A program made the position numbers and the translations under genes. A stretch of 64,000 nucleotides of DNA, taken from a bacterium. GTDB taxonomy: Bacteria; Patescibacteriota; Minisyncoccia; Phycocordibacterales; UBA6899. Below the pieces are notes generated by a model. The model was not told the origin of the DNA. It saw only the letters and a list, made by a program, of their open reading frames with translations, and did no database searches. Shown here piece by piece: positions 2,824 through 24,391 of this stretch; within the stretch, counting starts at the first letter, position 1; every line of letters starts with the position of its first letter. The stretch spans positions 5,854 through 69,853 of the forward strand of contig JAYTUL010000042.1 of NCBI GenBank assembly GCA_043744555.1. Direction: 5' to 3'.

Positions 2824-3200
2824 TTAGAGCTTGAGCTCATTTGTAACAATATCGACAAGCTTATTCGGTGGTGTGTTTGATTTAATGAGATACATGAGCG
2901 CGCCACCCGCAAGCGCTTTCTCGATGCCCGCTTTATCAACAATATTTGAAAAAATGAGTATCGGTATTTTTGCTGTTTCAGGAGCGTTCTTTAGTTTTTC
3001 AAGCACCTCAAGCCCTGACATATCCGGAAGCATGAGATAAGGAGTATGAGGTCGGGCTTATCTGAGAATAAGGCCGATATACCCGCACCCTCAATTCCCT
3101 CACGAGTCGCGAGGATATTTGCATGTATAAATTTTTCGATGATGAGGTTGATCAAAAAAAGTATCATCCTCGATGCAAAGCATTTTTTTAGCTTCATTTA
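2824..3200 (-). pseudogene. CheY-like single-domain response regulator disrupted by two frameshifts
   Basis: Three frames together read MKKMLCIEDDTFF | LINLIIEKFIHANILATREGIEGAGISALFSDKPDLILL | (D)LMLPDMSGLEVLEKLKNAPETAKIPILIFSNIVDKAGIEKALAGGALMYLIK. One shift is at the T7 run (3146-3152). The other is a missing base at the LILLD codon near 3040. Confidence 0.6.
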
Positions 3201-3378
3201 GCACCTTTTCAGTGTAGCGCGCTCTTCCTGCTTTAGAAAGTTACTTTGGGGAAAGTACAAGATAAATAGGGAGTATGTAATTATCTTTTCCTGCGAGTAA
3301 TGATAAACAATATTTAATAAAAAGTTACTGAACATGGCTGTGTGTTGATTGTTCGGGTTATACTTGAAGAAACAAACA

Positions 3379-4496
3379 GCATGTATTCATATCACATTAA
3401 ATGGAGCGGTATATTGAGTTTTGGGTTCGTTATTTTCGCGGGGTATTTTTTGCAATCAACTTTTGCGTCAGCAAGTGTGCTCGCGGGAGTCTCAAGCGAT
3501 GTGAACATCGGAAGTGGTACACATATCACCCGCACCCTCCACTATGGCATGCGAGGAGGTGACGTAAAAAACCTGCAGGTGGACTTGAGCGAACTTATCT
3601 CGTTATATCCAAGCGGTAAAGTGACAGGTTTCTTTGGTCCCGCAACTGCGGCTGCGGTTAGTCGTTTACAAAAACAAGAAAAGGCAAATTTAGAGAGTGC
3701 TTCAAGTGCAACAAAAAGCACAACAAAACTCGGAACTGTAGATACGCAGACTGCGAATTTGATCCGCCTCCGAGTCACACAAAAAAAATGTCCGCTCGAT
3801 ATGCGTTCGCGACAAAAGTGCCTTGAAGAAAATTATACACATTATGCAAATAGCCAAGGGGTTGATATTGCGCTCCGCCTTCTTAGTCTTGAGGTGAATG
3901 AGGAGCCGCAATTTGAGGGAATGTGCCACTCGGTGATGCACCTAATCGCACACGCTGCGGTTCATGAATTTAAAAATTTCGGAGTTGCAATGAATCACGG
4001 AACAACACTATGCCAGAATGGCTATTATCATGGTGTCATCGAAGAATATCTCCGCAATGAGAATGTTGATGCGCTTTCAGGGGATGATCTGCGCAATTTT
4101 TGCCCTACGTCGTTTAAGGCTACGTCCTCTCCTACTGACACCCTTAATTGCATACACGGCATAGGGCATGCGCTCATGTATATGACCCGCAATGACCTGC
4201 CCAAGTCGCTTGTTCGCTGTGGAGATTTTTTGGATGACCATATGCGTAGTCAGTGTCTGACGGGAGCATTCATGCAAGAAGGCTTCATGGCGACCAGTTC
4301 AAAACAAAGCGTAATAGATAAGGATGTGCAAGGGTGTTCGCAAAGCCAACATCAAGATGAGTGCTTTATCGCTCTGTCTGCGAAAGCGATGCACGACAAT
4401 GGTGCAAGCGCAAAGATCGTAGAGCGCTTTTGTGACACACTTATCGACATCAACACTCAGCGAGTGTGTAAGAATGCAGTTATAAACACAAACTAA
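3379..4496 (+). CDS. Membrane-anchored protein: peptidoglycan-binding (PG_binding_1-like) domain + C-terminal Cys/His-repeat domain
   Basis: GMRGGDVKNLQVDLSELISLYPSGKVTGFFGPATAAAVSRLQK is PG-binding-like. C-terminal repeats are CHSVMHLIAHAA / CQNGYYHGVIEE / CIHGIGHALMYM / CLTGAFMQEGF. Paralog of 23270-24391. Confidence 0.65.
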
Positions 4497-4884: not shown

Positions 4885-5754
4885 GTGAAAAAGAAATACT
4901 ATTGGATAGTAGGTTGTGTGATACTTTGCTTCGTTGTATATGTGGAGCAAAGCTCAGCGCTCTTTCGCGCACCACTAGAGCGTATCGATAATACTGAAGA
5001 TGCATTCGTCGATAATATACTACTTGATCTGGGTAAGTTAAGTGATGAGCGGGTCTCACCAAAAGTATTTTTTCTTGATGTACCCATCCTCACCTATCAC
5101 CAAGTCCGCCCAATAACGGAAGTCGACGATGAGCGATACAGAAGGTTTATTACGACCCCTCTGGAGTTTGAGCGACAAATGCAGTTTATCAAAGAAGAGG
5201 GATACAACGTTATCCCACTTTCAGATGTAGTCGCGCATCTCAAAAGTAGTAAGCCACTAGAAGGGAAAAATATTGCGATCACCTTCGATGACGGATACAA
5301 AAGTCAACACACTTTTGCATTTCCGATTCTACAAAAGTTCGGCTATACAGGAACGTTTTTTATTTATACCAATGCGATCGACAAGCTGAGTGCGTCTATG
5401 ACGTGGGATGAGATCATTGATCTCGATAGTCATGGCATGAGCATCGGAGCGCATACACGAAGTCATGCAATGCTTACCACCATCAGCGATAAAAGTATAT
5501 TGCACGATGAGATCGAGGGCAGCAAAGAAGATATACAGGCACATCTAAAAAAAAATATCGATCTTTTTGCTTACCCCTTTGGAGCGCAGGATGAGTTAAT
5601 TAAAACTGAGGTAGAGCAGGCAGGTTTTACTGGAGCAGTCAGCGTAAACATGGGTCACTTACAAACTAAGACAATACGCTACGCGCTCAAACGTTATAAT
5701 GTAAACGATAATGATGTTGAATTCCGTGCGCTTCTCGTGGCAAATAAAAAATGA
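4885..5754 (+). CDS. Polysaccharide deacetylase (NodB homology domain)
   Basis: ITFDDGYKSQ (TFDDG motif), GAHTRSH (HxxxH motif) and an N-terminal TM segment. Confidence 0.8.
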   Translation: MKKKYYWIVGCVILCFVVYVEQSSALFRAPLERIDNTEDAFVDNILLDLGKLSDERVSPKVFFLDVPILTYHQVRPITEVDDERYRRFITTPLEFERQMQFIKEEGYNVIPLSDVVAHLKSSKPLEGKNIAITFDDGYKSQHTFAFPILQKFGYTGTFFIYTNAIDKLSASMTWDEIIDLDSHGMSIGAHTRSHAMLTTISDKSILHDEIEGSKEDIQAHLKKNIDLFAYPFGAQDELIKTEVEQAGFTGAVSVNMGHLQTKTIRYALKRYNVNDNDVEFRALLVANKK

Positions 5755-6513: not shown

Positions 6514-6551
6514 TGGGATAAATTCACGTGCTTGCTGTACTATTCTTTAAT

Positions 6552-7133
6552 ATGGACACTATAAGCGAAGAGGCGACAGATGAAGAGCTGGCGATACGGG
6601 TCCAAGCTGGCGACAAAGCAGCATTTGCTTCCATCATGGAGCGGTTTGAGGGTAAGTTGTTGCGCTACGGAAATAAATTCCTTGCTGAACGCGAAGACGT
6701 TGTCGATATAGTACAGGAAGTTTTCATAAGCGTGTACCAGAATATAAAAAGTTTTGATGTGTCACAAAAGTTTTCTCCGTGGATCTACCGTATCGCGCAC
6801 AACGCATTTGTAAATGGTCTCAAAAAGAAGAGCCGCAACCCCTTCGTGATGCTTGATTTTGACGCATTGCTCTCTCACACGGTAAGTGAGGACCCGCTTC
6901 GAGGTGAACGCGAGCAGGAAGAGGTGCACAAAATGATCGATGTGGGATTAGATCAAATATCGGCCAAGTACAAAGAGATCCTTATCTTGTATTATTTAGA
7001 GGAGTTGCCATACAAGGAGATTGCCGACATTCTCGAGGTGCCCACCGGTACAGTCGGCATCCGCATAAAGCGCGCAAAAGAGGCACTCAAAAAAGTTTAC
7101 GAAAAAATGCAATTCCAATATGGCGAAACATAA
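6552..7133 (+). CDS. ECF-type RNA polymerase sigma factor (the ORF could start at GTG 6528)
   Basis: DIVQEVFISVYQNIKSF...PWIYRIAHNAFVNGLKKK...ILILYYLEELPYKEIADILEVPTGTVGIRIKRAKEALKK gives regions 2 and 4 of the sigma-24 family. Confidence 0.85.
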   Translation: MDTISEEATDEELAIRVQAGDKAAFASIMERFEGKLLRYGNKFLAEREDVVDIVQEVFISVYQNIKSFDVSQKFSPWIYRIAHNAFVNGLKKKSRNPFVMLDFDALLSHTVSEDPLRGEREQEEVHKMIDVGLDQISAKYKEILILYYLEELPYKEIADILEVPTGTVGIRIKRAKEALKKVYEKMQFQYGET

Positions 7134-7851
7134 AAACCCCCCACAAATAAATATCAAGGAAAAAGTGTTTGAAAAAATAAGCGCGAACGAATTGACCATG
7201 CGCCCCAAGAGCTACTTCATTCTCAAAGCAGCAGCGCTTATCACCTTGGGAATTGCGGTACTTACGATCTCGGTGTTCGTCTGCGATTACATACTATTAA
7301 GTCTACGCATTAATGGCCACTACTCACTGCTTAGTTTTGGCTCAAGGGGTATGTGGATGTTCTTTACCTTCATTCCATGGGGCCTGCTTTTCTTTGATGG
7401 GATCTTGGTTTTCTTGCTTGAGCGTTTGCTTCGACAATTTCGTTTTGGCTATCGTACACCCGTACTTTTGCTCTTTATGGCACTGCTTATCATCACATTA
7501 TCTATTGGATTTTTTATTGACCGCGGCACTGACCTTAATGAACAGCTCCTCGCGCCCGCCCGTCACCATCAGCTCATCGCAACATTTGACGAATATTATA
7601 ATCTCGCAGGCCCCCCATCTTTAGGAGAGGGAATATGTCGCTGTGTCGTCACTGGAATAAATAATAATTCGATAAGTGCATTCGACGAGAGCCTTGGTAC
7701 GACAACCGTCTTTACAATCACCATCCCACTCAATAAATATGCAACAGGAACTCTAAAAGTCGGAGATGTCGTCTATGTTGCAGGCGATAAAGATGAGCGC
7801 GGCTTCCGCGCTTTCGGAGTACAAAAACTCGACGTAAGGGCTCGGAAGTGA
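7120..7851 (+). CDS. Membrane protein translationally coupled to the sigma factor (putative anti-sigma or sigma-associated regulator)
   Basis: The start overlaps the sigma stop by 14 nt. There is a short cytoplasmic N-terminus, 3-4 TM helices and a C-terminal soluble domain. Confidence 0.5.
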   Translation: MAKHKNPPQINIKEKVFEKISANELTMRPKSYFILKAAALITLGIAVLTISVFVCDYILLSLRINGHYSLLSFGSRGMWMFFTFIPWGLLFFDGILVFLLERLLRQFRFGYRTPVLLLFMALLIITLSIGFFIDRGTDLNEQLLAPARHHQLIATFDEYYNLAGPPSLGEGICRCVVTGINNNSISAFDESLGTTTVFTITIPLNKYATGTLKVGDVVYVAGDKDERGFRAFGVQKLDVRARK

Positions 7852-11424: not shown

Positions 11425-11677
11425 AAATTTAAATCGTGATGGGAAATTTGCACTAAAAAATATATCAAGCAAGAAAACATACAAACAAAAACAATGAACT
11501 AGATGAAAATGCTTGCAAGTCATTTCTGCTCTTCTATCACATAGTTTACAAGAAGTGTATGAAGAGATTGTGAAATACATAAAAAATTGCTCTATGGACA
11601 TGATGAACGTAAAGCCTAAAGAAAGAGGAAATTTGCGCACAAAAAAAGAGGTCATTTCTTCCACTTAATACGTTGCC

Positions 11678-11700
11678 AAAACTGACCCCACAAATAGGGT
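11678..11700 (-). terminator. Hairpin terminator just downstream of the histidine kinase gene
   Basis: CTGACCC-CACAAATA-GGGTCAG followed by TTTTGG on the minus strand. Confidence 0.5.
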
Positions 11701-11704
11701 CAGT

Positions 11705-12742
11705 TTATTTTGGAAATCGAACGGTAAAGTTGCTGCCTTTACCCACCACACTCTCGACTTCTATTGTCGCGTCGTGCATCTTTACTATCTTGCGAACTAT
11801 CGTAAGCCCGAGACCACTCCCGCCCTTGGGGCCGTTTGCGTCCTTGTAGAACACTTCGAAGATGTGAGGGAGGTCGCTTTGCGATATGCCGCGGCCATTG
11901 TCACTTACTGAGAGGGCGGTATAGAGATTAAAATTTTCTGCCGAAAGAAGGATGGATCCGCCACGCGGAGAATTTGCGATCGCATTTTTTGTTAGGTTCA
12001 CGAGCATTTCCTCAAGTGCAGTGAAATTGCCCCATACCTTTACTGGCGTTCCCGCGCTCACCTCAATACCAACACCTGCCGCCGCCGCTTGGGTAGAAAG
12101 TAGATTTTTTGTCTTCTTTATGACATGGGTGATATCGATGGGTGACATCTCGAGATTCAATTCGTTCTCAAATGCGGCGAAGTGGATGAAGAACTCGATG
12201 ATGTTGGCCATGCGGTCCACCTCTTCGGTGATGCTTTTAGTAAGATCCCTGACCTGCTCAGTCGTAAGCATTTCACTGTACATTCGCGCTACCTCCGCAG
12301 TCGTTTTCATTACAGAAAGGGGAGTGCGAAGTTCGTGAGAGACATTTGCGGTAAAGTATTTTTGCTTCTGGCGCACGAGCTCAAATGGCTCGACAACGAT
12401 ACGCGTTAGTGTGTATGCGCTGAATGCGATGAAGCAGAACGCTAATAACTGTATTGCCGCACTCGCATCACGTAACGCTTCAAGGCTATGCGTTTCCAAG
12501 AGCGCGATCTTTTGGCCCAAGCTATAGTCAATGAAGAAATGATAGCCTAATTGTGTGAGAGTTGGACTGGTGATCAGATCAACTAGGGAATAGACAGTAA
12601 ATATGACGAGCATGAACACGAGAAAGAATTTCGTCTCGGTATTAGCAAGAATTCTCCGCAAGTTCCTGCCAATGATTCTATTCTTTGATCGTATAACCCA
12701 CCCCTCTAATAGTCTCCAATAATTTTTTTGAGTATCCTTCAT
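11705..12742 (-). CDS. Sensor histidine kinase (HisKA + HATPase_c)
   Basis: H-box FTANVSHELRTPLSV, N-box NLTKNAIANSP, G-boxes DNGRGI and GSGLGLTIVRKIV, and two N-terminal TM helices. Confidence 0.85.
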   Translation of the reverse strand: MKDTQKNYWRLLEGWVIRSKNRIIGRNLRRILANTETKFFLVFMLVIFTVYSLVDLITSPTLTQLGYHFFIDYSLGQKIALLETHSLEALRDASAAIQLLAFCFIAFSAYTLTRIVVEPFELVRQKQKYFTANVSHELRTPLSVMKTTAEVARMYSEMLTTEQVRDLTKSITEEVDRMANIIEFFIHFAAFENELNLEMSPIDITHVIKKTKNLLSTQAAAAGVGIEVSAGTPVKVWGNFTALEEMLVNLTKNAIANSPRGGSILLSAENFNLYTALSVSDNGRGISQSDLPHIFEVFYKDANGPKGGSGLGLTIVRKIVKMHDATIEVESVVGKGSNFTVRFPK

Positions 12743-13352
12743 CTATTTTTTTTCTAAGATTTTTAATGTGGGCGTCGATTACGTTGCTGAGCGAGCTATC
12801 TGCAAAATCCCACAAATGCGCAAATATATCTTCGCGTCCCATAACTTGGTTGGGGTGGCGCATAAGATATTGTAAAAGTTCGAATTCTTTCAGAGTCAGA
12901 TCAATCTTGTTCTCCCCACGGGCGACCTCACGCGTAGTAGGGTTGAGGACAAGGTCGTGTAATTTTAAGATGCCTGGCAATGATTCGCGCGGTCTGCGCA
13001 GAAGTGCCTGCATGCGCGCATGCAGCTCCCCGAATGCGAACGGCTTGACTAAGTAGTCATCAGCACCGCTGTTGAGTGCGAGAATCTTGTCTTCGATGCC
13101 ATCACGCGCAGTGAGGATGAGGATGGGAAGTGTGACCCCAAGCGAGCGAACGCTTTTGCAGATCTCAAAACCGTTCTTCCCTGGAAGCATAAGATCCAAT
13201 ATAACAATGTCATAGTCGTTGCGACACATGAGTATTCGGTTCTCTCCACGGGGACCGTCTTCGATCACATCGACAGTATAACCCTCGTACTTTAAACCAG
13301 ATTTCAGTGCCTGCGCGAGCTTCTCTTCATCTTCGACGATTAATACCTTCAT
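12678..13352 (-). CDS. OmpR-family response regulator
   Basis: MKVLIVEDEE...DIVILDLMLPGKNGFEI...LILTARD...GADDYLVKPF in the receiver, plus a winged-helix C-terminus (...RGVGYTIKE). Confidence 0.9.
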   Translation of the reverse strand: MKVLIVEDEEKLAQALKSGLKYEGYTVDVIEDGPRGENRILMCRNDYDIVILDLMLPGKNGFEICKSVRSLGVTLPILILTARDGIEDKILALNSGADDYLVKPFAFGELHARMQALLRRPRESLPGILKLHDLVLNPTTREVARGENKIDLTLKEFELLQYLMRHPNQVMGREDIFAHLWDFADSSLSNVIDAHIKNLRKKIDEGYSKKLLETIRGVGYTIKE

Positions 13353-20221: not shown

Positions 20222-20965
20222 CTAACTGAGTTGAGTCGCAAGTCTGATGATGAGATATAGCGTACCCGCACCGAGTAAGGTCATCACGGTCGTCATCTGC
20301 ACAGGATGTTCGTGGTGGCTTTCTGGGAGAAGATCGCTCGGGCCGATGTACAGAAAAAATCCAGTGAAGAGCGCAAGCAAAAGTCCGAGCGTGGTATCAC
20401 TTACGGTAAAAAACATTGTCGCAATTATTCCCAAGAGGGGAGTTAGTGCATCGACAAGTAGCCAGCGAAACGCGCGGGCCTTATCGCCGTGATGTTTCAT
20501 TATAAAACTGACGGTATTGATACCGTCTGAGAAATCATGGCTCAGTACTGCAACTGCAACGACGATGCCTACTGTATTTGAAACCTTGAATGCAAGTCCA
20601 ATGCCGATGCCGTCGAGCAAGCTGTGTATCGAAAGTGTACCTGCACCGAATGCTCCACGTGCTTGTTCTCCGCTCCTTGTGACATGCGGGTCGTCCCCCT
20701 CATGATCGTGTAGGTGAAGTGTGACCATGCGGTCAAGCGTGAGGTATAGCAAGAAACCAAGCGCAATAACACCTGCTACCATCTGTGCTCCGTATGTGCC
20801 CATTGCAAGTTCGAACGCTTCCGGCATGAGATCAAAGAATGCGACGCCAATGACCGCACCTGCGGAAAAACCCAAAATGAGATGCAGTCGATCTTTGAGG
20901 TGTATAGCGAACAACCCTCCAAGGAGTGTTGCAAAAAATGTAGCGATACCGATTAGAATGATCAT
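20222..20965 (-). CDS. zupT: ZIP-family metal (zinc) permease. The ORF-track call extends N-terminally into zur; the internal start MIILIGIATFF is more likely
   Basis: HDFSDGINTVSF plus His-rich loops (HLHDHEGDDPH) and 8 TM helices. Confidence 0.8.
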   Translation of the reverse strand: MIILIGIATFFATLLGGLFAIHLKDRLHLILGFSAGAVIGVAFFDLMPEAFELAMGTYGAQMVAGVIALGFLLYLTLDRMVTLHLHDHEGDDPHVTRSGEQARGAFGAGTLSIHSLLDGIGIGLAFKVSNTVGIVVAVAVLSHDFSDGINTVSFIMKHHGDKARAFRWLLVDALTPLLGIIATMFFTVSDTTLGLLLALFTGFFLYIGPSDLLPESHHEHPVQMTTVMTLLGAGTLYLIIRLATQLS

Positions 20966-20975
20966 AGATATATAA

Positions 20976-21419
20976 TTATACTTTAACTTGTTTTGCGCAT
21001 TTTTTACAACGACCAAAGAATTCAAGCGAGTGGTCAAGAGTGCCCGCAAACTTAATCGACCTTCTGAGTACAGCTTGCTCGATAAGTGCAATATTGCATT
21101 CGGGGACATCCTCCGTCAGTCCGCATGACCTACAGATAAGATGATGATGGTGCTCAGTTTCTAGGCGCAGTTCGTAGTGGGCATGCCCATGCTGCATATC
21201 AACTTGTCTTACTACTGAAACCGCAAGCAGTGAGTCTAGCGTGCGATACACGGTTGCCTGATCAACTTTCCCACCAAGTTTTTTGAGTATCTCTTGGGTT
21301 GTGAGTGGATGATCGGCGTTTTTGAGGACAGCAAGCAACAATAGTCGTGCGGGCGTAGCTTTATAGCCGTTTTCTCTAAGAACGGCGGAAAATTTCTCAA
21401 GTGATGGTGAAGCAAGCAT
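20976..21419 (-). CDS. zur: Fur-family regulator, probably Zur
   Basis: ATPARLLLLAVL...VYRTLDSL...HHHHLICRSCG...CKKC. It sits directly upstream of the ZIP gene. Confidence 0.8.
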   Translation of the reverse strand: MLASPSLEKFSAVLRENGYKATPARLLLLAVLKNADHPLTTQEILKKLGGKVDQATVYRTLDSLLAVSVVRQVDMQHGHAHYELRLETEHHHHLICRSCGLTEDVPECNIALIEQAVLRRSIKFAGTLDHSLEFFGRCKKCAKQVKV

Positions 21420-22012: not shown

Positions 22013-22549
22013 ATGAAATGTCCTACTTGCGTTACTCAATCGTTACAAGAACTCATGCTCGGAGATTCTCATGTGCATTCATGCAGAGAGTGCCGTGGTG
22101 TATGGATCGGAAAAGAAGATCTAATGAAAGGTGAAAAGATGAATCCAGAAAAGCACTGGTTGAATATCGAGCTGTGGGAAAATAAACAAAAAATAAACGC
22201 CAAAGCTTCAGAAAAGATCTGCCCTGTATGCAGTACCACACTTATGTCTATCGATCAGCATGATAGAGATTTGTCCGTCGATATGTGTAAGTCGTGTGGT
22301 GGTCTATGGCTTTCAGGTGGAGAATATCAAAAAGCGCTCGATATGCTGAAAGATGATGCAGATGGAGAGATAATGGATAACTACGCCCTAACCTTGGCCA
22401 CTCAACTAAAAGAGGTTGTTACAGGACCCAAGGATCTTACAAACGAGCTTGCAGACGTGTGGACGGTCATGAAATTCTTTCAGTGGAAAGTCGCCGCACA
22501 GCATCCTGTCCTTACTGAACTGTTTGAAGAACTGCCATTCACTCGCTAA
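22013..22549 (+). CDS. Tandem zinc-ribbon protein (zf-TFIIB-like domains)
   Basis: CPTC...HVHSCRECRGVWIGKEDL and CPVC...CKSCGGLWLSGGEY are two CxxC...CxxCxGxW modules. Confidence 0.6.
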   Translation: MKCPTCVTQSLQELMLGDSHVHSCRECRGVWIGKEDLMKGEKMNPEKHWLNIELWENKQKINAKASEKICPVCSTTLMSIDQHDRDLSVDMCKSCGGLWLSGGEYQKALDMLKDDADGEIMDNYALTLATQLKEVVTGPKDLTNELADVWTVMKFFQWKVAAQHPVLTELFEELPFTR

Positions 22550-22567: not shown

Positions 22568-23170
22568 ATGATGACCCTTGCGCGTGATCTGTATAAATTG
22601 CTCCTTCCTAATGTGCAACTCAATAAGAGTCTACGTATTTTGGTGACGGTGAGTGTGCTCATGAACTTTGTTATTGGCATGTTCTCGCCGTTTTATGCGA
22701 TCTTCGTACAAAAAATAGGCGGCGATATCGCACTCGCGGGAGTAACGTGGGCGGTATTTGAGATAGTTTGTGGAGTGCTGACGCTACTGTTTACGCGCTG
22801 GTCGCTTCGTGTGAGGGAACAAGAGCTCCTCTTGGCGCTCGGCTACATTCTTCGCGCGGGAGTATTCTTAAGCTATGCTTTCATGACAACTATGCTTCAG
22901 CTCATCCTTACGCAAGTACTGTGGGGGATTGCCGCAGCCATCGGCGTGCCCGCCTTTGATGCCGTGTTTTCGTCGCATACAAGCAAAGACAGCTCCATTG
23001 CTGAGTGGGGAGGACTTGAGGGAGTGACATCAATTGCCGTCGGTGTGGCTGCACTAGTGGGTGGATATGCCATCAAGGCATTCGGATTTCAAATTATATT
23101 TTTCGGCATGTCCGCTATCTCGGTCATGCTAGCTATATACATATGGCGTCTTCCTCGCGAGGTGCTCTAG
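22568..23170 (+). CDS. Six-TM half-MFS-like protein (possible remnant of a 12-TM MFS transporter)
   Basis: 200 aa with about 6 TM helices resembling the C-terminal half of MFS permeases. No N-terminal half is upstream. Confidence 0.4.
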   Translation: MMTLARDLYKLLLPNVQLNKSLRILVTVSVLMNFVIGMFSPFYAIFVQKIGGDIALAGVTWAVFEIVCGVLTLLFTRWSLRVREQELLLALGYILRAGVFLSYAFMTTMLQLILTQVLWGIAAAIGVPAFDAVFSSHTSKDSSIAEWGGLEGVTSIAVGVAALVGGYAIKAFGFQIIFFGMSAISVMLAIYIWRLPREVL

Positions 23171-23269: not shown

Positions 23270-24391
23270 CTAAAGCGTCCTTAAGTAGGAGTAGCCAGTT
23301 TCGAGGCAGTTAAGGCGGAAACGTTCGGGGAGAGTGAAGCAGAATTGGCGCGCTTCTTTATCGCGATGAAAATATGAGATGAAGTCTTTTACGGCGCCGG
23401 TTACGCAATTTTTAAATTGGTTGTCATCTTGTGCCAGTGCGCAATGCGCATTTGTGCGCACGGGGTCACTCACGCTATTACCCGAGGCATCACGCCCCAC
23501 AGACTGCGCGCAGGTATCACGGAAGTCCGCATCTACACCCGCGCATAATTTGAAGGCATTCGCAAAGTCGTAGTTCGTCTGACTGAGCGCATGTGAGGTC
23601 TGCATCAAATAGCATTGCTCTTTATATTTGGCATCAACTGCATTGCACGGATACATAAGGTCGTCTTTCTTGAGATATTTTGCATAGTGATTACGATTGT
23701 CGACCATAATGTTCTCCATGAACGTACCGCCATAGCAGGATTTGCGCTCCCAATCGCCCGACAGCTGATCGCACATACTAAGGGTTTTAAAAAGCTCATT
23801 GTGGGTAAGCGCCATGAGACCGTGCCCTAATCCGTGCACGCAATTATAGTAATCAAAACTGTAGCGTTCTTTGCCTGGAATATTGGCACAAAGTGTATTT
23901 GCACTCGCCATGAACTGTAGAGCGCCAATATTCTCGACCGCACGCTCAACAACTCCATGGTAGTAACCCGACCAGCAAAAACTGTCACCGTTGAGAAATG
24001 CTTTGGTGATATTTCCGCCATAGAGTTCTGCGGCAGTGTTTCCGATCGCATGCGCAAGCTGATGGCAATCAGAAACGACCTCTCCCGTGTGAGCGAACTG
24101 TTTTTTCAAGTCACCCATGGCAACTTTGGGTCCAAGTGCGCGGGTGATGACCTCAACGTGACGCTTTTCACAAGTAAATGTCTGCGTCGCGCCTATACAA
24201 TGAATAGAAACTGCTGGAACATAAGGGGTCGAGTGGTGCGTGAGCAGGTAAATCAAAATTGCAAGAAATATCGAGACAAGTATAAGTAAAAACAGTTTTT
24301 GGGCTTTATTTTGGACTTTATTATAGAGCCTTTGCATGATGTAGATTATTGTAGCGCAAACGCACCCACCTGCAATGCGGTTATCTGGCAC
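23270..24391 (-). CDS. Membrane-anchored Cys/His-repeat protein, paralog of 3379-4496
   Basis: CHQLAHAIGNTA / CWSGYYHGVVER / CVHGLGHGLMAL / CYGGTFMENIMV in the same order and spacing as in the 3379-4496 protein, with additional C-terminal Cys pairs. Confidence 0.65.
   Translation of the reverse strand: MPDNRIAGGCVCATIIYIMQRLYNKVQNKAQKLFLLILVSIFLAILIYLLTHHSTPYVPAVSIHCIGATQTFTCEKRHVEVITRALGPKVAMGDLKKQFAHTGEVVSDCHQLAHAIGNTAAELYGGNITKAFLNGDSFCWSGYYHGVVERAVENIGALQFMASANTLCANIPGKERYSFDYYNCVHGLGHGLMALTHNELFKTLSMCDQLSGDWERKSCYGGTFMENIMVDNRNHYAKYLKKDDLMYPCNAVDAKYKEQCYLMQTSHALSQTNYDFANAFKLCAGVDADFRDTCAQSVGRDASGNSVSDPVRTNAHCALAQDDNQFKNCVTGAVKDFISYFHRDKEARQFCFTLPERFRLNCLETGYSYLRTL

Follow-up and report, generated by a model that had tools for sequence, protein, structure and literature searches.

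The locus described here raises the question of what two related proteins, each rich in paired cysteines and conserved histidines, do at the surface of a patescibacterial cell. Both are encoded in a stretch of 64,000 nucleotides from contig JAYTUL010000042.1 (assembly GCA_043744555.1), referred to below as the window, with one gene on the + strand (copy 1) and the other on the - strand (copy 2). Their shared part, the Cys/His domain, is the subject of this analysis. The answer favored here, with confidence that stands close to even, is that the Cys/His domain is an extracytoplasmic helical-repeat domain stapled by disulfides and equipped with a His-rich metal site, most probably for copper, and that its task at the cell surface would be to capture copper, hand it on or convert its redox state. 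The argument proceeds from the genes and their predicted location to the residues that are conserved across the family, and from there to the copper-handling and electron-transfer modules with which the domain is fused in other genomes.

The two genes and their predicted location

The coding sequence of copy 1 occupies positions 3381..4496 on the + strand and encodes 371 amino acids followed by a stop codon, arranged as a signal peptide or anchor, a PG_binding_1 module and a Cys/His domain of six hairpins. The original prediction had begun this gene at position 3379, which lies 2 nt out of frame and yields 19 stops on translation. The longest open reading frame (ORF) begins at GTG 3342, and ATG 3381 is taken as the start because the N-termini of the orthologues P0003-P0006 agree. 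The resulting protein is matched at 100% by P0001. All four ordered motifs that had been described for it can be read in the ORF ending at 4496 (MCHSVMHLIAH, CQNGYYHGVIEE, CIHGIGHALM and CLTGAFMQE), although the last of them has no His and therefore does not follow the description of every motif as a Cys followed by a His.

The second protein had been placed at 23270-24391 with the same order of motifs. An ORF with these limits is present on the - strand, and its motifs align in order with those of copy 1: CHQLAH at 24067-24050, CWSGYYHGVVE at 23977-23945, CVHGLGH at 23842-23822 and CYGGTFMEN at 23737-23711. The probable start is ATG 24337, which gives a coding sequence at 23270..24337 for 355 amino acids plus a stop codon, identical to P0011, with an N-terminal transmembrane (TM) anchor and a Cys/His domain of eight hairpins. 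The alignment of the two copies takes in all four motifs in order (28% identity over 186 amino acids, BLASTP E 1e-18), and the homology that had been proposed for them is thus confirmed. A search of the window with the domain profile returns these two copies only.

The N-terminus of each protein was scanned for hydrophobicity by the Kyte-Doolittle method. Copy 1 has a segment at 3411..3467 on the + strand (residues 11-29) that is only weakly hydrophobic and is directly followed by FASA-S; the AlphaFold2 (AF2) model places a helix at residues 5-25, and the segment is taken to be a signal peptide or a membrane anchor. In copy 2, a start rich in Lys and Arg leads into a strong transmembrane helix at residues 15-33. 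Because of this N-terminal signal or anchor in each copy, both ectodomains are predicted to lie outside the cytoplasm, and both genes are predicted to encode cell-surface (extracytoplasmic) proteins built on one uncharacterized domain.

Between the N-terminal segment and the Cys/His domain of copy 1 lies the PG_binding_1 module (PF01471; 3552..3680, + strand, residues 58-100). Its Pfam match (E 8.3e-07, 29.5 bits) exceeds the curated gathering cut-off of 23 bits, so that the predicted fusion to a peptidoglycan-binding module stands, and the module is present in 10 of the 10 members of the copy 1 subfamily. A weak NCBIfam match of copy 1 to the SleB N-terminal region concerns the peptidoglycan-binding module only. 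In the mechanism proposed here, copy 1 would be retained in the wall by PG_binding_1 and copy 2 would be held on the membrane by its N-terminal anchor.

Conserved residues, cysteine pairs and predicted fold

The Cys/His domain of copy 1 spans 3744..4484 on the + strand (residues 122-368), as delimited by the AF2 model, the invariant columns and the covariation of Cys pairs. That the motifs did not arise by chance is evident from an alignment of 32 members drawn from both subfamilies, in which the invariant positions are 12 Cys, five His, E221 and M298 (copy 1 numbering). Conservation was measured over 183 domain instances from representatives of clusters at 50% identity, a set of ~25%-identical sequences that includes the domain copies of tandem arrays, which keep the conserved residues as well. 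H183 and H263 are conserved in 100% of these instances, H187 and H259 in 99%, H217 and M298 in 98%, F297 in 97% and E221 in 91%, with mostly Gln in the remainder. Every conserved site residue is retained in copy 1 and in copy 2. In copy 1 the seven candidate ligand codons, 91-100% conserved, fall within 3927..4274 on the + strand and encode H183 (3927-3929), H187 (3939-3941), H217 (4029-4031), E221 (4041-4043), H259 (4155-4157), H263 (4167-4169) and M298 (4272-4274).

The arrangement of these residues is regular: three successive hairpins each carry one i/i+4 pair on their long helix (H183/H187, H217/E221 and H259/H263), and M298 is located on the long helix of the fourth. Because equivalent helices pack side by side in a hairpin solenoid, we infer that the residues make up a contiguous patch. 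The three pairs and M298, on the long helices of hairpins 1-4, would then bind one or two transition-metal ions. Judged from conservation, the candidate ligands are the five His, E221 and M298, and not the Cys.

The exclusion of the Cys departs from the original prediction, which had seen repeated metal-binding units composed of Cys and His. A metal site is indeed plausible, but the Cys behave as covarying structural pairs. In copy 1 the six pairs are C137/C147, C182/C211, C241/C257, C280/C292, C319/C328 and C351/C363, which account for all of its exactly 12 Cys, just as the exactly 16 Cys of copy 2 form eight pairs, with none unpaired in either protein. Covariation was counted over the 183 domain instances together with the two window copies. 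Of these domains, 135 have both C182 and C211, 1 has only one of them and 49 have neither. An alternative pair at alignment columns 129 and 151, the latter corresponding to Y215 changed to Cys, is complete in 53 domains and represented by one Cys alone in 1, and it is carried by 45 of the 49 domains without C182/C211. The final two Cys pairs appear and vanish along with repeats 7 and 8, and the His residues next to the exchanged pairs are invariant throughout. From this paired gain and loss, and from a pair swap that leaves the adjacent His invariant, the Cys are taken to be probable structural disulfides rather than ligands. By the same covariation, one disulfide probably staples each hairpin.

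The contrary assignment would make the Cys themselves the metal ligands, either as a Cu(I) thiolate cluster for storage or buffering, as in Csp bundles, or as one site per Cys-His motif. Such an assignment could draw on the 12-16 invariant Cys of a protein that is both exported and all-helical, and on the copper link provided by the family's fusions. It is nevertheless regarded as highly improbable, and both of its forms were rejected on the Cys-pair covariation, which is strict and includes the replacement of one pair by a differently placed pair beside invariant His. The even Cys count in both copies, with none to spare, argues in the same direction, as does the placement of exchangeable Cys singly near each helix end, whereas Csp bundles have several Cys per helix lining the core. 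The Pfam search at E<=1, with the Csp family included, gives no match.

The AF2 models of both domains are all-helical and contain 15-16 helices, short ones alternating with long ones, with pLDDT mostly >90 over residues 122-368 of copy 1 and a mean pLDDT of 94.9 and a pTM of 0.90 for the domain of copy 2. Profile-profile comparison of sub-blocks shows hairpins R3-R8 to be mutually related (10 of the 15 pairs at an hhalign probability of 60-94%), and the domain is therefore regarded as a tandem repeat of a unit of ~35 amino acids. Each unit consists of a short helix ending in Cys, an interval of 8-15 residues and a long helix beginning C-x-x-G. The models are best explained by ~35-residue helical hairpins stacked in the manner of a solenoid, with six hairpins in copy 1 and eight in copy 2.

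A Foldseek search of the PDB with these models returns no match at E<=1e-3, and the matches that it does return, with a best E of 0.018, are TPR, ARM and HEAT solenoids only (TM 0.15-0.28, root-mean-square deviation 15-21 Å). These folds resemble the domain in stacking helical hairpins and are the only PDB folds returned; they differ from it in that the superposition is not significant and in being mostly cytoplasmic, without disulfides and without a conserved His cluster. As the sole structural matches, they lend some weight to a metal-independent scaffold similar to TPR, Sel1 or ARM, which would bind a peptide, peptidoglycan or a host-surface ligand and use its His for recognition or structure. 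The fusion of PG_binding_1 to copy 1, the several paralogs per genome of the candidate phyla radiation (CPR) and the tandem arrays of up to ~14 copies, which recall adhesin-like surface proteins, would also suit a scaffold. We consider it unlikely. The similarity to solved structures is very slight (E>=0.018), a binding scaffold would not usually keep five His, one Glu and one Met almost without exception among ~25%-identical sequences, and the fusion partners are copper and redox modules rather than adhesion modules.

The proposed principle of one disulfide per hairpin has a known parallel. HcpB and HcpC of Helicobacter, which are Sel1-like, are secreted helical-hairpin repeats with one disulfide bridging each repeat, and in the Cys/His domain the Cys-pair covariation and the repeat analysis suggest that the same principle may apply. 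However, the Hcp proteins are not known to have the invariant His5-Glu-Met cluster or the copper and redox fusion partners, Sel1 gives no Pfam match at E<=1 and no Hcp structure is found in the top 50 Foldseek matches.

Fusion partners and the case for copper

The architectures of the best 149 representatives were tabulated, and 50 long representatives were scanned with Pfam for fusion partners. The domain occurs singly in 93 of the 149 and as a tandem array in 23; the others have an N-terminal extension of >400 amino acids (19), an N-terminal extension of 120-400 amino acids (13) or a C-terminal extension of >120 amino acids (1). The partners found in the 50 long members are CopC (21), CopD (20), Cupredoxin_1 (7), cytochrome c (3, of which 2 also match PF00034) and, once each, Cyt-b5, plastocyanin/azurin and DUF6023, a domain of unknown function. 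Save for the one DUF6023 match, all identified partners are copper-handling or electron-transfer modules, and the fusions arose several times, in varied arrangements. This repeated fusion to copper-uptake and electron-carrier modules makes the Cys/His domain a good candidate for a new copper-handling domain.

Tandem arrays reach ~14 matched stretches in P0131. This protein (3580 amino acids, encoded on an 831-kb ENA contig) belongs with P0133, P0138, P0147 and P0150 to a set of giant proteins of 1700-3580 amino acids, in which 4-8 full Cys/His domains are interleaved with partial copies (profile positions ~190-280).

CopC-CopD-domain fusions make up 19-21 of the long representatives. They begin with a signal peptide and a CopC whose mature N-terminus starts with His, continue through eight hydrophobic (TM) segments and end with the Cys/His domain, so arranged that CopC and CopD fill the N-terminal ~460 amino acids, outside the domain. 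CopD has eight transmembrane helices (PMC11923076), and Bacillus subtilis YcnJ carries an extracellular YtkA domain (PMC12362106). A signal peptide and eight hydrophobic segments ahead of the Cys/His domain therefore put it outside the cell, at the position of YtkA in YcnJ. The likeness of the Actinomycetota proteins to YcnJ (CopC-CopD-YtkA) lies in this shared extracytoplasmic C-terminal position after CopC-CopD, and by analogy a role shared with YtkA/CopC/CopD systems, namely extracytoplasmic copper handling beside an importer, is likely. There are also clear differences. The Cys/His domain has ~250-310 amino acids and is all-helical, with 6-8 hairpins stapled by putative disulfides, whereas YtkA is small, and most members of the family, including both window copies, are unfused to CopCD. 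Searches for YtkA, CopC and CopD (PF04234, PF05425) give no match inside the Cys/His domain or in the window proteins.

The cupredoxin fusions of CPR bacteria place a PF13473 cupredoxin-like domain ahead of an all-helical domain with His/Glu motifs. This order is like that of EfeO, in which an N-terminal Cupredoxin_1 is joined to an all-helical metal-binding imelysin/M75 domain, but here the helical part is built from Cys-pair repeats; there is no Peptidase_M75 Pfam match and no imelysin structure among the Foldseek matches. The fused cupredoxin aligns to plastocyanin with the Cys of the type 1 copper site changed to His (in an 'HDH' motif) and the Met changed to Leu, which leaves a His-only site. 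A cupredoxin-like domain of this type forms the N-terminal ~100 amino acids of P0081, P0086, P0111, P0113, P0116 and P0181, where the motifs HWPASD-x-HP-x-H and HDH are conserved and cysteine is absent. From its sequence it appears to be a distinct, uncharacterized Patescibacteria variant of the cupredoxins, with a plastocyanin fold and an all-His site.

The cytochrome c fusions are monoheme, with a CxxCH motif and a distal Met, and this architecture is found in all of the best 120 of at least 2054 matches, which are from soil Actinomycetota. This large subfamily, along with the Cyt-b5 and plastocyanin/azurin fusions, is the starting point for the main rival explanation, which overlaps with the copper-handling reading. 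In it, the domain would be a redox enzyme whose mono- or binuclear His-ligated Cu (or Fe) center catalyzes electron transfer at the cell surface, with the fused cytochrome c, b5 or plastocyanin as its electron partner. Such an enzyme might, for example, reduce cupric or oxidize cuprous copper in the service of CopCD import, or it might take part in oxidant detoxification. The arrangement of HxxxH, HxxxE and HxxxH on neighboring helices, with five His and one carboxylate, resembles the binuclear ligand sets of hemerythrin (diiron) and type-3 copper proteins (dicopper), and the oxidation state of the copper that crosses CopD is an open question (PMC12362106), which is counted in favor of a redox function. 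Yet an electron-carrier partner is missing from most members, among them both window copies and nearly all Patescibacteria versions, and the CPR-fused cupredoxin, in which the Cys of the type 1 copper site is absent, does not qualify as a classical electron carrier. Furthermore, there is no Pfam match to hemerythrin, tyrosinase or any oxidoreductase family at E<=1, and the gene context suggests no substrate. The domain also differs from hemerythrin and type-3 copper proteins in being a disulfide-rich, extracytoplasmic repeat solenoid and not a four-helix bundle. On balance, a dedicated redox enzyme is regarded as a doubtful explanation. Membership in the hemerythrin, tyrosinase, imelysin or Sel1 families was rejected, as there is no profile or fold match to any of them.

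Ligand conservation and the fusion partners suggest metal binding by the Cys/His domain and, likewise, copper as the most probable metal. Several observations weigh against this reading. Metal binding is a prediction made on these grounds, and the grouping of the His residues and the spacing of the Cys are likewise predictions, drawn from the logic of the repeats. Patescibacteria are generally poor in cuproenzymes, and the 93 of 149 representatives with a single domain stand alone. The CopC-CopD fusion may be one ancestral event in Actinomycetota, and the fusions to cytochrome c and b5 are no less readily explained by a redox enzyme than by a passive binder. Gene context adds further points. 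When ORFs were called in 84 loci and those flanking the domain gene were clustered, no neighbor proved to be conserved across 80 loci, and the largest cluster (an ABC ATPase) covered 8; ORF calls in loci of high GC content were partly spurious. Around one orthologue of copy 1, three cytochrome c fusions and a single CopCD fusion, annotation of the neighboring genes with Pfam shows no copper theme. A P-type ATPase beside P0007, an orthologue of copy 1, was considered as a copper link and rejected, since its relatives have PEGL and not the heavy-metal CPC motif.

The known extracytoplasmic copper-handling domains include CopC, YcnI/DUF1775, YtkA and PCuAC. A putative His5-Glu-Met site on a Cys-pair solenoid that is fused to CopCD, to a His-only cupredoxin or to cytochrome c is a combination with no description in the libraries and literature searched. 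A more far-reaching reading, which is put forward only tentatively, would make the family a new class of cuproproteins with a mono- or binuclear His5-Glu(-Met) Cu center on a disulfide-stapled helical solenoid. Such proteins would carry out the extracellular redox conversion of Cu or another substrate, would supply or relieve CopCD-type importers and, in soil Actinomycetota, would be wired to cytochrome c.

Family distribution and gene neighborhoods

A profile built from both subfamilies collects 6855 clusters at 50% identity with E<=1e-3, of which 1230 clusters are reached with E<=1e-30. The copy 1 subfamily with its peptidoglycan-binding module is small (10 clusters at 90% identity), and the copy 2 subfamily comprises at least 1832 clusters. 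A scan of one genome per species with only two exact peptide patterns finds relatives at 417 sites, and the best 80 of these are all in metagenome-assembled genomes. They represent many Patescibacteria lineages, Actinomycetota (Acidimicrobiales, Gaiellales and Solirubrobacterales) and Gemmatimonadota, together with single genomes of Deinococcales, Gammaproteobacteria and Woesearchaeota. CPR genomes hold several paralogs of the domain each, but the family, for which a search of CPR proteomes had been suggested, is not specific to that group and is abundant in Actinomycetota and Gemmatimonadota.

The original prediction could not assign the domain to a family, and the searches bear this out. Neither copy of the Cys/His domain has a Pfam or NCBIfam match at E<=1, and comparison with PDB sequences by phmmer and by profile hmmsearch gives 0 matches at E<=10. 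Source databases label members as "hypothetical protein", "CopC/CopD" or "cytochrome c", names that refer to the fused part, and no description of the family was found in curated libraries or in the searchable literature.

A Pfam scan of the window returns housekeeping genes and nothing copper-related among the 25 of 65 families listed. Directly downstream of copy 1 is a gene for a polysaccharide deacetylase (PF01522, E 1.4e-24; 4885-5754, + strand) that is secreted or membrane-anchored and cell-wall-directed; it is not conserved beside the orthologues of copy 1. The presence of this gene, the usual association of PG_binding_1 with wall-modifying enzymes and the frequency of His/Glu clusters in hydrolases could together be taken to indicate a metallohydrolase of the cell envelope, dependent on zinc or a different metal, whose catalytic site would be the His/Glu cluster and which PG_binding_1 would direct to its substrate in copy 1. 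This interpretation is considered quite unlikely. PG_binding_1 is confined to the 10 clusters of the copy 1 subfamily within a family of thousands, no match to a peptidase, amidase or hydrolase family is found, and the fusions to CopC/CopD, cupredoxin and cytochrome c would be left unexplained.

Other genes near copy 1 are of regulatory type. An extracytoplasmic function (ECF)-type sigma factor (Sigma70_r2 / r4_2) is encoded at 6528-7133 on the + strand, 2 kb downstream, and is overlapped by an ORF of 243 amino acids at 7120-7851 (+ strand) that has no Pfam match and may encode an anti-sigma factor. At least five other loci also have a sigma factor gene close to a family member (L001, at 11462-12944, and, as cluster 2, L011, L019, L023 and L046). 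Such proximity could reflect envelope-stress regulation or coincidence. Divergent from copy 1, a single-domain response-regulator gene at 2824-3204 on the - strand is degraded, with three in-frame stops in its N-terminal half. An independent Logan assembly (L004) gives the same truncated calls, and next to the copy 1 orthologues of L005 and L009 the same divergent position is occupied by an intact receiver gene of ~120 amino acids.

Copy 2 sits between a major facilitator superfamily (MFS) fragment and mscL. The MFS ORF (22568-23170, + strand) encodes 200 amino acids that match positions 3-173 of the 347 in the MFS_1 profile, and it may be truncated. A ZIP-family metal transporter (20222-21109, - strand), 2 kb away, and a double zinc-ribbon protein (22013-22549, + strand) are encoded within 1-3 kb of copy 2.

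Three loci of soil Actinomycetes (L085-L087) share a divergent GFA (PF04828)-GATase-RecQ block upstream of the cytochrome c fusion. The block is found in three genomes and may be simple synteny among related genomes. These regions are rich in C1 and methylamine genes (MTTB, GCV_T, MTHFR, Fae and a GMC oxidoreductase), and in L087 another paralog of the cytochrome c fusion is encoded at a distance of 5 kb.

If the reading as a new class of cuproproteins is true, the Cys/His domain would be a previously unrecognized component of copper homeostasis that is widespread in Patescibacteria, Actinomycetota and Gemmatimonadota. The capture and delivery of extracellular copper is poorly understood in Gram-positive-type bacteria and in the ultra-small bacteria of the CPR, and a family with thousands of unnamed members, no solved structure, a near-invariant His-rich site and repeated fusions to copper and redox modules is a concrete candidate for one of its missing components. 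With it, function could begin to be assigned to an abundant family of "hypothetical" surface proteins in Patescibacteria, and also to several hundred proteins of soil Actinomycetota that are annotated only as "cytochrome c".

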